From: an uncultured Bacteriovoracaceae bacterium
GTDB lineage: Bacteria > Bdellovibrionota > Bacteriovoracia > Bacteriovoracales > Bacteriovoracaceae
Length of the DNA stretch: 64,000 nt
Reading direction: 5' to 3'
NCBI GenBank assembly: GCA_964012805.1
Contig: CAXGUD010000015.1
Coordinates: 1 to 64,000 of the forward strand
Below are positions 12,001-15,000 of this stretch, piece after piece. A program made the position numbers. Position 1 is the first letter of the stretch; each line of letters opens with the position of its first letter.

Positions 12001-15000
12001 ATTCAAACAAAATTCCTATCTAAAAGGTGGCCAGCTTGTTTTACAAGAACCTTTTCTCAATTTGTAGGTGAATTTCAAATGTCTGAAACAGACCTCTATT
12101 TTTGGGCAAAATATGTTGAGAGGGTTCGAAGGGGCCGCTCAAAAGTTAAATAAATTAAACAATGGATTCAGCTTCGACCAAATCCCTCCTGCTTTCTTGG
12201 CTTGATAAAGACTTCCTCTTTACTCTCGCATAAGGCCCTAAATCTTTCCGCATTATGTAATCCCAAATAACTTTCGTCCAGGATGAATAAGAGTGCAGAT
12301 TATCATAATATTCTGGAGCTAAAGACTTGAGACGGGGAAGATTTGCACCAGCAATATTAGGAAAGTCATGGTGTTCGTTATGGTACCCGACGTTATAAGT
12401 TAAGTAATTTAAAGGACCGTAATAAGAATACGTTTCCTGCTCTCCCTTAAAAACATAATGTTCCGAGATAAAGTGACCCGTCATTGGATGAAGTCCAGTA
12501 GAAAGGAAAGTAGCTAAGAGGAAATAGCAAAGGGCCTTAGGTCCAAAATAAAAATACACGAGTGTATTAAAAGCAATTTGAATTATAAAGTTAATAATTT
12601 CATATTTACCTGGTGGCTTAGGTCGTAAAAAAAGAGGCCTTATTGCGTAGAAAAGCGGTTGAAAGAAAAGCCATATCATTTTCATTAGCCGACCTTTAAA
12701 AACAACAACCTCCCACTGACTCGGAATATCCGAATCTATATCCTCATAACCTTGATATTTGTGATGCTCTAAATGGTATTTTCTAAAAGTCGCCGCTGAA
12801 GGAATTCCTGTAGGGAGGTTTGCAAAAAAACTAAACCAAATATTGGTAGCAGATCTTTTAAAAACAAGATTGTGGGAAAGCTCGTGCATAGCTAGAAGAA
12901 GTGAGTGGTTAATAACCCCACCCACGGTATAAGACATGAGAAGAACAATAAGCCAGGTCTGATCTTTCATGAAATAGGCCAGGGCAAATTGAATAAAAAC
13001 GGAGAGGCAAATCCAATACTTTGCCCGAGGACAGTGACCGTAGAGTTTTTTCACTTCGGGATGCTTTTTTAAAATTTCCCTCCGTCTCATTGCATGAGGC
13101 TCTTTTGTTTCTGACCAAATAAAACCATCTTTCCCTTTTTGACCCACCTTAACTCCTTGGTGATACTCATCCCATCTAACAAGCTTACCTTGCGAAGAAT
13201 CACAATTCAACTGAGCTCTTGACCAAACAATATTTCAGACCTACCGTGGAACTTCTTTATTAAAGACACTTTTTTGATGTGATACTTATTTAAGGCCTAG
13301 CGGAGAAACAATAATGATATCAGACTTCTTAGCGACACTTGTTGACTACGCATGGGGCCTTCCCCTTATTGTCCTTCTTATTGGTGGAGGTCTTTACCTT
13401 GGTTTTGTTTCCAGGATGGCCTCTCTACGGGGTTTTTTTCATGCCTTAAAACTCATTCGTGGAAAGGGAAGCCACTCTGATTCATCAACAAAAGAACAAG
13501 TCGAAGGCCAGATAAGCCACTTCCAGGCCTTAACGAATGCTCTTTCGGCAACAATTGGTTTGGGAAATATAGCAGGGGTTGCGGTCGCGATTGGTAAAGG
13601 AGGCCCAGGCGCTATTTTTTGGATGTGGATTTCAGCTCTTATTGGGATGAATACTAAATTTTTTGAATGTACTTTGGCCGTTATGTTCAGGGGAAAAGAT
13701 TACACTGGCGAAACCCAAGGTGGACCGATGTATTTTATAGAAAAAGGCTTGGGAAATAAGGCAAAGCCACTTTCCTTCTTTTTTGCCCTCTGTGGTCTAG
13801 GAGGGACGCTTGCGCTTTTCAACGTTAATCAGCTTACAAGCTTCATGCATGATCAATTCCAATTTCCCAAGATGGCCTTGGGAATTGTCCTAGCTATCAT
13901 TACAGGATATGTGGTTTTTGGCGGAGTGAAAAGAATAGCCTCCCTGACGTCAAAAATAGTCCCTCTCATGTGTATTCTTTATGTTGCTCTTTGCCTTTAT
14001 GTTATTGGTAACAATATAGGTAAGGTCCCATCCCTTCTCATTCAAATTATTACAGAAGCCTTTACTGGAAAAGCTGTCGCTGGGGGGGCCATGGGATCGG
14101 CCATTCTTTTTGTCATGATCCAGGGGGTGAAAAGGGCCGCTTTTTCTAACGAAGCAGGTATTGGTACGGCTCCTATGGCGCATGGGAACGCCAAAACAAA
14201 TGAACCGATCGCTGAAGGACTTGTGGCCATGTTGGGTCCCTTTATAGATACAATCCTGGTCTGTACTATGACAGCGCTTACAATACTGATCTGCCTCACA
14301 CCGGAAGAAATGGCTCAAGACAATGGAGTCCTCATGACTTTGAGAGCTTTTGAAAAGGCCTTTGGAAATTCAGGGAAAATCTTTTTAGGTATCTCAGTGT
14401 TTTTCTTTTCTTTCTCAAGTATATTTGGTTTTGCTAACTACAATAAAAAATGCTGGGATTACCTTTTTAAGGGCTCATGGCCTTTCGGTGATATTCCCTT
14501 CATTATTTTTTATTTATCCTCTATTATTTTAGGCGCAGTGGCCACAATGGATGATGTTGTTAATATTCTTGATATATGCTTTGCATTTATGGCGGTCCCC
14601 AATATGATAGGTACCATCATCTTATCCTCAAAGGTTAAAGGGGCCATGGATGATTACTTTAAAAGGCACAAAATTTAGGTCAATTTTTTTTTAAAAAAGA
14701 AAGGGACTCTTTAATTAAGGACTCCCCACCGAGAGGGCCTTTTCCTTTTCCAGCGTTGAAAATAATAAAATCTGGCCTCACTATAAAGATGTTTAAAGAT
14801 GAACCGGTAAAAGCACTTAATTTATCTTCTTCATCAAGCCATGTAGCTTCTTTATAAGGGGTTTTAAGAAAGCTTAAATTTTTTTTTAATTTTTCATTTT
14901 TCCTTTTATGAATAACAATAACCTTCCCCCCCCAGTCCTCCCATTGTTTTAAAGAATCTCTTCTAAAAATTTTTAATGGGTCTTGATTCAAACAAAAAAG

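Follow-up and report, generated by a model that had tools for sequence, protein, structure and literature searches.

A 64,000-nucleotide stretch of DNA from an uncultured Bacteriovoracaceae bacterium (contig CAXGUD010000015.1, positions 1 to 64,000; the whole stretch is called the window here) was analysed and found to carry a gene of the DES/DEGS family, the family of the eukaryotic sphingolipid desaturases. To judge from its sequence, the gene is an intact and true member of that family. Its product probably acts on ceramide that the cell makes itself, modifying the long-chain base at C4, and the gene would belong to a branch foreign to the rest of its bacterial family. The gene and its immediate surroundings are as follows.

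12155..13147, minus strand: DES/DEGS-family gene (DES), 330 aa, with Lipid_DES at residues 7-41 and FA_desaturase at residues 64-288.
11740..12153, plus strand: convergent neighbour gene for a protein of 137 aa that matches SH3_3 weakly; 2 bases separate its stop from that of DES (included to show the layout, not as a functional part).
13148..13313, no strand: divergent intergenic region of 166 bases between DES (minus strand) and a Na:alanine symporter gene (plus strand), containing GGAG at 13156-13153.

The domain content and conserved residues of DES were examined. Both domains named in the initial annotation scored above their cut-offs: Lipid_DES (PF08557) reached 66.2 bits against 23, and 70.2 bits in a six-frame search of the genome, and FA_desaturase (PF00487) reached 99.7 bits against 29.7. 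This gene was the sole Lipid_DES match across the 4.47-Mb genome. Identity to DES1 of animals and plants was 51-58%. For the named entries it was 51-56%, with 92-99% of the query aligned, which agrees with the 55% previously given for a rice DES1-like protein. HxxxH, HxxHH and HxxHH form the di-iron-binding box pattern of membrane desaturases, and DES carries H88-x3-H92, H125-x2-H128-H129 and H256-x2-H259-H260. In an alignment of 72 sequences, H88, H92, H125, H129, H256, H259 and H260 were invariant and H128 was at least 90% conserved. The two domains, a length of about 320-330 aa and the three histidine boxes are shared with eukaryotic DES1/DEGS1. The AlphaFold2 model had a mean pLDDT of 94.1 and a pTM of 0.91. 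Its best Foldseek matches were the desaturase-like subunits 8xks_K (E 1.4e-5, TM 0.66) and 8xqw_M, with further matches to AlkB (8f6t/8sbb) and SCD1 (4zyo); the fold is confidently predicted to be that of a membrane di-iron desaturase/hydroxylase. Queried by sequence, the PDB gave 0 matches to the protein and holds no DES-family structure by this measure. The sole NCBIfam match, to CrtW, stayed below threshold at 21.8 bits (cut-off 350), and that library gave no curated bacterial family name for the protein.

The open frame spans 12155-13210 on the minus strand. The annotated form begins at GTG 13147, five bases downstream of the GGAG, and an in-frame TTG at 13210 is an alternative start that would give 351 aa; the 90% cluster of the protein includes both the 330-aa and the 351-aa forms. 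One of two metatranscriptome runs yielded two short contigs at 100% identity (11262-11485 and 13021-13175) and the other yielded none. Because DNA carry-over is possible, these contigs do not count as evidence of expression. The second of them ends short of TTG 13210, a weak hint only on the start of the gene. DES is monocistronic, because the stop of the convergent neighbour lies so close to its own. Each of the window neighbours (PLD-like, DUF2541, SH3, symporter and FAD monooxygenase genes) was found near DES in 0 of 109 other loci. Metagenome contig L139 keeps the order of DES and the SH3_3 gene. DES was unseen in both genomes of the same genus, G226 and G227, and in G227 a 7TMR-DISM gene adjoins the symporter where the window has DES. 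At 72% and 68% completeness, and with contig breaks at this spot, these two genomes do not establish absence of the gene.

The relationship of DES to other family members was then compared. The protein was 37-48% identical to full-length copies from its own family and phylum, versus 50-58% to copies from Polyangiaceae and eukaryotes. In a careful tree, the copies of the family formed clade I (100/100) and window DES fell into clade IIb (97/94), which comprises Myxococcota DES, eukaryotic DES and the window clade. Clade I DES has the same Pfam architecture as window DES but is set apart from it by a 100/100 branch. A Bacteroidota/Ignavibacteriota clade was sister to clade IIb, and a third bacterial clade lay outside both. 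An AU test rejected a single clade of window and family DES (delta lnL 92, p 1.4e-5), the group for this test having been chosen after the identities and a first tree were known. The nearest bacterial relatives are DES proteins of Myxococcota (Polyangiaceae, Sorangium and Cystobacter fuscus Cbf 10; 50-56% identity, clade IIb), whose genes stand alone like window DES but in a phylum other than that of the window host. Seen through these trees, window DES is a xenologue that belongs to the Myxococcota/eukaryote branch and not to the one carried by other members of its family and phylum.

DES being closer to eukaryotic DES1 than to any copy in its phylum sample might point to eukaryotic contamination or mis-assembly in a bacterial bin. 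The probability of this is close to nil. The gene is embedded in an 87-kb contig whose other genes are ordinary bacterial ones, the stretch is present in marine metagenome runs from several studies, and a protein from a Bdellovibrionota MAG is in the 90% cluster. Moreover, the independent contig L139 keeps the gene order of window 10173-14266, with 79% nucleotide identity, and contamination is judged refuted because of such collinear contigs. The composition of DES (GC 0.386, 70th percentile; GC3 0.347, 82nd percentile; among 1741 long ORFs) is ameliorated. Because of this and of the gene order conserved in a relative, the transfer is judged to be old, with enough time since then for the gene to take on the composition of the host genome.

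The initial annotation had regarded DES as probably gained from eukaryotes, a claim that is not supported: the supports for the place of the window clade inside clade IIb were 14/34 and 3/8, too low to name a donor. The best named matches were indeed molluscs, insects and plants at 51-56%, and the careful tree set the window clade beside the eukaryotes, where its support was negligible (14/34). Direct transfer from a eukaryote is considered rather unlikely, given that Polyangiaceae DES is as similar as eukaryotic DES (56% for L055) and that the window clade grouped with Myxococcota in FastTree (SH 87) and in an outgroup tree (support 44). In the outgroup tree the sampled eukaryotes also formed a group that excludes the window clade (SH-aLRT 97), with bacterial clades outside that group; these eukaryotes were thinly sampled (animals, plants, a single choanoflagellate and one EukProt entry), with no vertebrate DES2 sequence in the trees. 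The absence of introns, the bacterial ribosome-binding site and the host-like composition also argue against a direct eukaryotic origin. The outgroup consisted of 8 FA_desaturase paralogues from the same genome. Their branches were long (1.3-9.4 changes per site) and they did not form one group, so that rooting the tree between clades I and II is unreliable. A tentative alternative reverses the direction of transfer: should the root be placed outside clade IIb, eukaryotic DES1, nested within bacterial diversity, would have been inherited from a myxobacteria-like bacterium. The copy in this marine lineage might then either be a bacterial relative of that donor's stock that has survived or have been received from it secondarily, and would have taken the place of the native type. 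A myxobacteria-like bacterial origin has reportedly also been argued for eukaryotic plasmalogen and sterol enzymes.

The genome also holds sphingolipid genes, with spt on another contig than DES. Two of the loci are listed here.

C48:1167-2375: SPT gene, with Sphingobacterium multivorum SPT (3a2b and 8guh, E 1.2e-112) as best PDB matches, ahead of KBL and BioF.
C1, L008:1459-2151, minus strand: Scs7/FA2H-like hydroxylase, 230 aa, with FA_hydroxylase at 66.2 bits and a match to yeast Scs7p (4zr1/4zr0) at E 9e-27 over residues 50-223.

Directly after spt come genes for a 372-aa Acetyltransf_1 (GNAT) protein and a 330-aa Epimerase-family (NAD-epimerase) protein, so the bacterial SPT and the ceramide-reductase-like gene noted before were both recovered. 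The same trio is found in genome G098 and in Cytophagales loci, and the set on C48 is predicted to be a complete spt/bCerS-like/CerR-like ceramide operon. The setting resembles that of eukaryotic DES1/DEGS1 in that a predicted substrate pathway is present, and differs in that the host is a bacterium with ceramide made by the bacterial spt/bCerS/CerR route. The operon would make N-acyl-sphinganine (dihydroceramide), the proposed substrate of DES. DES would then act as a membrane-bound di-iron oxygenase that uses O2 and two electrons to abstract hydrogen from the long-chain base at C4. The substrate, the position of attack, the product and the source of electrons are all inferred here. Eukaryotic DES1 receives its electrons via cytochrome b5, a working feature and not a criterion of membership. 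Unlike the eukaryotic setting, the window genome gave 0 matches to cytochrome b5 (PF00173) at a completeness score of 100%. For this reason the eukaryotic electron chain is taken to be missing, the donor of DES must differ, and a ferredoxin- or flavodoxin-type donor is probable.

The FA 2-hydroxylase-like gene of the initial annotation corresponds to the Scs7-like gene on C1. Its product lacks the Cyt-b5 domain of Scs7p, as follows from the zero Cyt-b5 matches in the genome. It was 50-73% identical to Bacteriovoracaceae copies and is vertically shared with them, unlike the DES copy. Eukaryote-type ceramide tailoring in bacteria has a precedent in myxobacterial FA2H-type fatty acid 2-hydroxylases (Ring, Schwar and Bode 2009, as described in PMC10002949). 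The Scs7-like gene is of the same kind as these hydroxylases, which belong to the FA_hydroxylase family, a different enzyme family from that of DES. The ER-type lipid enzymes listed earlier were also present, with 1 profile match for PTPLA, 3 for Acyltransf_C, 1 for Far-17a_AIG1 and 3 (in 2 frames) for ABHD18. Besides DES, the genome holds 9 other FA_desaturase genes and 8 FA_hydroxylase genes, so that the modifications proposed for DES could also come from other enzymes. An aminotransferase beside an FA_hydroxylase gene on C5 was considered as a second sphingolipid cluster and rejected; it is not SPT-like and its neighbours are topoisomerase and GDPD genes.

The distribution of DES was measured among relatives. 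Homologues were present in 69/237 family genomes, in 75/400 other genomes of a phylum sample, and in Myxococcota, Bacteroidota, Acidobacteriota and others. A protein query at E<=1e-30 gave 68/236 for the family, where the Pfam model used in the initial annotation had given 57/236. Such genes are common in bacteria and window DES is not unique but one candidate of very many; the earlier caveats that the family is widespread and that DES is not clustered with spt here were both right. SPT was found in 67 of the 69 DES-positive family genomes versus 52 of the 168 DES-negative ones, a hand count among relatives that are not independent, at a threshold (E<=1e-100) that admits 44-47% identical alpha-oxoamine synthases, possibly with another substrate. 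The DES-positive genomes without SPT were G072 (84% complete) and G093 (280 contigs). In several relatives the genes are physically close.

G128 locus: spt, a 370-aa gene, FA_hydroxylase and DES.
G024 locus: GNAT, CDP-alcohol phosphatidyltransferase and DES.
G040 locus: DES, FA_hydroxylase and a 370-aa gene beside an SPT-like gene, with sulfotransferase and CysD/CysN-type genes.
G098 locus: cerR-bcerS-spt operon 4.6 kb from DES.

Among 109 DES loci scanned, SPT lay within 8 kb in 12 (6 Ekhidna, 3 Cyclobacteriaceae, 2 Marinoscillum and 1 MAG labelled Rickettsiales) and a bCerS-like gene in 14. Clade I DES in particular is sometimes found in spt/bCerS-like/FA_hydroxylase clusters. Ten annotated loci from Myxococcota and others showed no sphingolipid neighbour and no conserved partner of DES. 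The clustering evidence thus comes from clades I and IIa and not from the clade of window DES, because window DES and the nearest Myxococcota DES stand alone. The co-occurrence with spt and the clustering in relatives give indirect backing to the earlier reading that DES acts on the long-chain base at C4, which is still the best one.

A substrate other than ceramide appears improbable; candidates would be lipids with a similar head, among them sulfonolipids, capnine-type bases, free long-chain bases and prey-derived lipids. Such a substrate is suggested by the G040 locus, where DES occurs with sulfotransferase and CysD/CysN-type genes and the SPT-like gene is only 47% identical to the SPT of the window genome. 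The family of the organism is also described as one of bacterial predators. However, the genome contains what is predicted to be a complete spt/bCerS-like/CerR-like operon, DES tracks SPT almost perfectly in the family, and the G128, G024 and Cytophagales clusters contain bCerS-like N-acyltransferases.

As to the reaction at C4, Delta4-desaturation is given a somewhat higher likelihood than 4-hydroxylation. The known characterised DES family members of animals, plants and fungi are Delta4-desaturases, except vertebrate DES2, and window DES sits with that branch. DES could instead be mainly a C4-hydroxylase, leading to phytoceramide-type lipids and not to a double bond, but this is considered rather unlikely. 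Vertebrate DES2/DEGS2, a bifunctional Delta4-desaturase/C4-hydroxylase, is of the same family as window DES, and its C4 chemistry may end in a hydroxyl. Sphingophosphonolipids of Bacteriovorax stolpii reportedly have 4-hydroxy bases, which counts for hydroxylation; a B. stolpii DES, if any, would be expected to be of the clade I type, unlike the window copy. The family does switch between desaturation and hydroxylation (mammalian DEGS2; PMC10499023). In the window genome, however, the 8 FA_hydroxylase-family genes could hydroxylate C4 instead of DES. The JGI label "sphingolipid 4-desaturase/C4-monooxygenase" on some metagenome homologues also agrees with a hydroxylase. As these homologues already bear that name, the claim of a first assigned bacterial enzyme is weak for this gene. 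No paper assigning or testing a bacterial DES, and no experimental characterisation, was found in the literature searched.

For bacterial ceramide the route is known only as far as dihydroceramide, and the literature searched contained no bacterial enzyme that had been tested for placing a double bond or a hydroxyl at C4. Window DES is a sound candidate for this step. Moreover, two deeply separated DES types within one bacterial family offer comparative value and may differ in product. Because the branch of window DES is the one nearest eukaryotic DES1, it bears on the source of the eukaryotic sphingolipid tailoring enzymes.

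The DES/DEGS-family gene (DES) that the initial annotation had read as a C4 desaturase/hydroxylase of the ceramide long-chain base was confirmed as a DES-type gene by its intact frame, both Pfam domains, its histidine boxes and its fold.

12155-13147, minus strand: DES ORF, uninterrupted frame, 330 aa

The annotated start is a GTG (13147) with GGAG upstream at 13156-13153; starting instead from the in-frame TTG at 13210 would lengthen the protein by 21 residues, and its 90% cluster contains records of both lengths. In the 330-aa form, Pfam detected Lipid_DES at residues 7-41 (66.2 bits, cut-off 23) and FA_desaturase at residues 64-288 (99.7 bits, cut-off 29.7), the Lipid_DES match being the only one in the 4.47-Mb, 130-contig genome. 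In a 72-member alignment of the DES family, H88, H92, H125, H129, H256, H259 and H260 were invariant and H128 was at least 90% conserved; these residues form the three histidine boxes typical of membrane di-iron desaturases. The AlphaFold2 model (mean pLDDT 94.1, pTM 0.91) was matched by Foldseek to the desaturase-like subunits 8xks_K and 8xqw_M, alkane hydroxylase AlkB and stearoyl-CoA desaturase; a sequence search of the PDB returned no solved structure of any DES family member.

The closest relatives of the window DES fell in one metagenome cluster at 89% identity, including a Bdellovibrionota MAG protein, followed at 51-58% by a mixture of animal and plant DES1 (the sphingolipid Delta4-desaturase) and Polyangiaceae proteins. 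Against full-length copies of its own family the identity was only 37-48%, and against copies in the phylum 36-48% (400-genome sample). Trees were built with FastTree (336 rows) and IQ-TREE (88 rows, LG+C20+F+G4), leaving out proteins under 290 aa and one duplicate locus, the 88-row set being also randomly thinned per clade. Both gave the same DES backbone. Clade I (100/100) united the family copies with those of Acidobacteriota and some Saprospiraceae. Clade II (100/100) consisted of IIa (100/100; Bacteroidota, Ignavibacteriota, Balneolota) and IIb (97/94). The window clade (100/99) falls in IIb, whose other members are the eukaryotes, a Myxococcota clade (100/100), a single Marinamargulisbacteria MAG and a single unnamed protein. 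The position of the window clade within IIb was barely supported (14/34 and 3/8); FastTree (SH 87) and the outgroup tree (support 44) grouped it with Myxococcota. A single group of the window clade and 12 family copies, chosen after the identities and the first tree were known, was rejected by the AU test (delta lnL 92, p 1.4e-5). Judged by sequence, the window DES is a foreign copy of the eukaryote/myxobacteria type, and the rest of its family carries another type.

The initial annotation had further supposed a probable origin in eukaryotes. The root fell outside IIb with midpoint rooting and also with a paralogue outgroup of poor quality; eukaryotic DES1 would therefore sit among bacterial clades, with Myxococcota as its neighbour. 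That eukaryotic DES1 is itself of bacterial descent is a tentative reading, because few eukaryotes were sampled and the position of the root is unreliable. Such nesting would agree with what has recently been claimed for plasmalogen enzymes (PMC13012113); recent surveys on where eukaryotic genes come from do not name DES in the parts consulted.

A recent arrival or a contaminant was ruled out. Metagenome contig L139 keeps the gene order of window positions 10173-14266, from the symporter gene through DES to the DUF2541 gene, at 79% nucleotide identity, and DES has host-like composition among 1741 long ORFs of the genome (GC 0.386, 70th percentile; GC3 0.347, 82nd percentile); DES is therefore a settled part of the lineage. 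No match to DES was found in two same-genus genomes, which are only 72% and 68% complete. In one of these two, G227, the contig that carries PLD, DUF2541 and SH3 breaks off 134 bases past SH3, and a 7TMR-DISM gene flanks the symporter. The window stretch was present in marine metagenome runs from several studies, and the taxon names of homologues assign its genome to Bacteriovoracaceae/Bacteriovoracales within Bdellovibrionota. Two marine metatranscriptome contigs matched it at 100%, one at 13021-13175 (the DES 5′ end and 28 bases upstream) and one at 11262-11485 inside the DUF2541 gene; DNA carry-over is possible for both.

DES is monocistronic. A small SH3-like gene converges on it, with the stops 2 bases apart, and a Na:alanine symporter gene diverges from it across 166 bases. 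None of the window neighbours recurred near DES at 109 other loci, so the window itself offers no functional link. A SUKH/SMI1-KNR4 protein (6074-6520, minus) and an ankyrin-repeat protein (8185-8787, minus) lie a few kb away. Two PLD paralogues, 38% identical over 650 residues, were seen in the genome:

8945-11005, minus strand: protein with two PLD domains, 686 aa, 1.1 kb from DES
G000:C48:10528-12522 (L024, same genome): protein with two PLD domains, 664 aa, 6 kb from the spt operon

The pair might act as sphingolipid head-group transferases or lipases; no PLD neighbour was found near DES among the 109 other loci.

On contig C48, spt (serine palmitoyltransferase, SPT) has Sphingobacterium multivorum SPT as its best solved relatives (E 1.2e-112). 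The genes directly after it encode a GNAT protein of 372 aa and an NAD-epimerase-family protein of 330 aa, an order that fits the bacterial Spt/bCerS/CerR ceramide route. A 230-aa FA_hydroxylase protein on C1 matches yeast Scs7p (E 9e-27), and its homologues are ordinary in Bacteriovoracaceae (50-73% identity). Genome-wide, there are 10 FA_desaturase and 8 FA_hydroxylase matches, an unusually large set of membrane di-iron lipid enzymes; one of these matches belongs to a C5 frame of 914 aa. Matches to PTPLA, Acyltransf_C, Far-17a_AIG1 and ABHD18, reported earlier, were all recovered. About 1.3 kb separate a PTPLA gene (3-hydroxyacyl-CoA dehydratase type) from an FA_hydroxylase gene (G000:C25:3904-4236 and C25:5545-5949).

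With the window protein as query (E<=1e-30), a DES homologue was found in 69 of 237 family genomes (49 of 145 high-quality ones); with the SPT of the window genome (E<=1e-100), an SPT homologue was found in 119 of 237. By hand count of both tables, SPT was present in 67 of the 69 DES-positive and 52 of the 168 DES-negative genomes, counts that are not independent because the genomes are relatives. The DES-positive genomes lacking SPT were G072 (84% complete) and G093 (280 contigs). In several family genomes, DES lies near sphingolipid genes:

G128: spt, 370-aa gene, FA_hydroxylase and DES, consecutive
G024 (L138, G024:C35:5000-14000): operon-like row of bCerS-like GNAT, CDP-alcohol phosphatidyltransferase and DES
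G040 (L137, G040:C14:1500-11500): sulfotransferase, DES, FA_hydroxylase, 370-aa gene, Zn-ADH, SPT-like, PAPS-reductase-family (CysD-like) and CysN-like genes
G098: cerR-bcerS-spt, 4.6 kb from DES

The L138 row suggests that a head-group step is coupled to C4 modification; its bCerS-like GNAT is a second copy, on a different contig from the spt of G024. The L137 cluster may encode a pathway to a sphingoid lipid of sulfated or sulfono type; its SPT-like gene is 47% identical to the SPT of the window genome. Among the best 80 loci from species genomes, SPT was found within 8 kb of DES at 12 (6 Ekhidna, 3 Cyclobacteriaceae, 2 Marinoscillum, 1 MAG labelled Rickettsiales) and a bCerS-like gene at 14. 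The DES of the Rickettsiales-labelled MAG (L076) groups within Cyclobacteriaceae and is accompanied by the spt cluster found in them. Within the eukaryote clade, the protist part includes the DES of a MAG labelled Alphaproteobacteria (L061, 8.5-kb contig). These two placements look like binning errors or transfers. No conserved sphingolipid neighbour of DES was found in 10 annotated Myxococcota and other loci. Three Polyangiaceae-type loci (L056:8976-9656, L062:9006-9908 and L060:8962-9375) carried further eukaryote-type lipid genes beside DES: Steroid_dh genes (3-oxo-5-alpha-steroid 4-dehydrogenase family) at two of them and a gene for an acyl-CoA-binding protein at one.

By family, the predicted reaction uses a di-iron centre, O2 and two electrons, and its target is C4 in the sphinganine part of dihydroceramide. 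Members of the DES family leave either a 4,5-trans double bond or a 4-hydroxyl. We lean modestly towards desaturation as the predicted outcome, because this copy sits in the branch with the eukaryotic Delta4-desaturases and because the many FA_hydroxylase genes of the genome could supply hydroxyls. Other bacterial membrane desaturases use ferredoxin or flavodoxin as donor, and one of these would probably serve DES, since a profile search found no cytochrome b5 domain in the genome.

At least 573 confirmed stretches of genome contigs carry DES homologues. NCBI names the homologues 'fatty acid desaturase', NCBIfam has no DES model, and JGI already labels some of them sphingolipid 4-desaturase/C4-monooxygenase. 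No assignment or test of a bacterial DES was found in the literature searched; bacterial FA2H-type hydroxylases are established (PMC10002949, on the work of Ring et al. 2009). From its sequence relationships, the window DES belongs to a known, uncharacterised bacterial kind, and its added interest is that of a foreign type within a family that otherwise carries another DES type.
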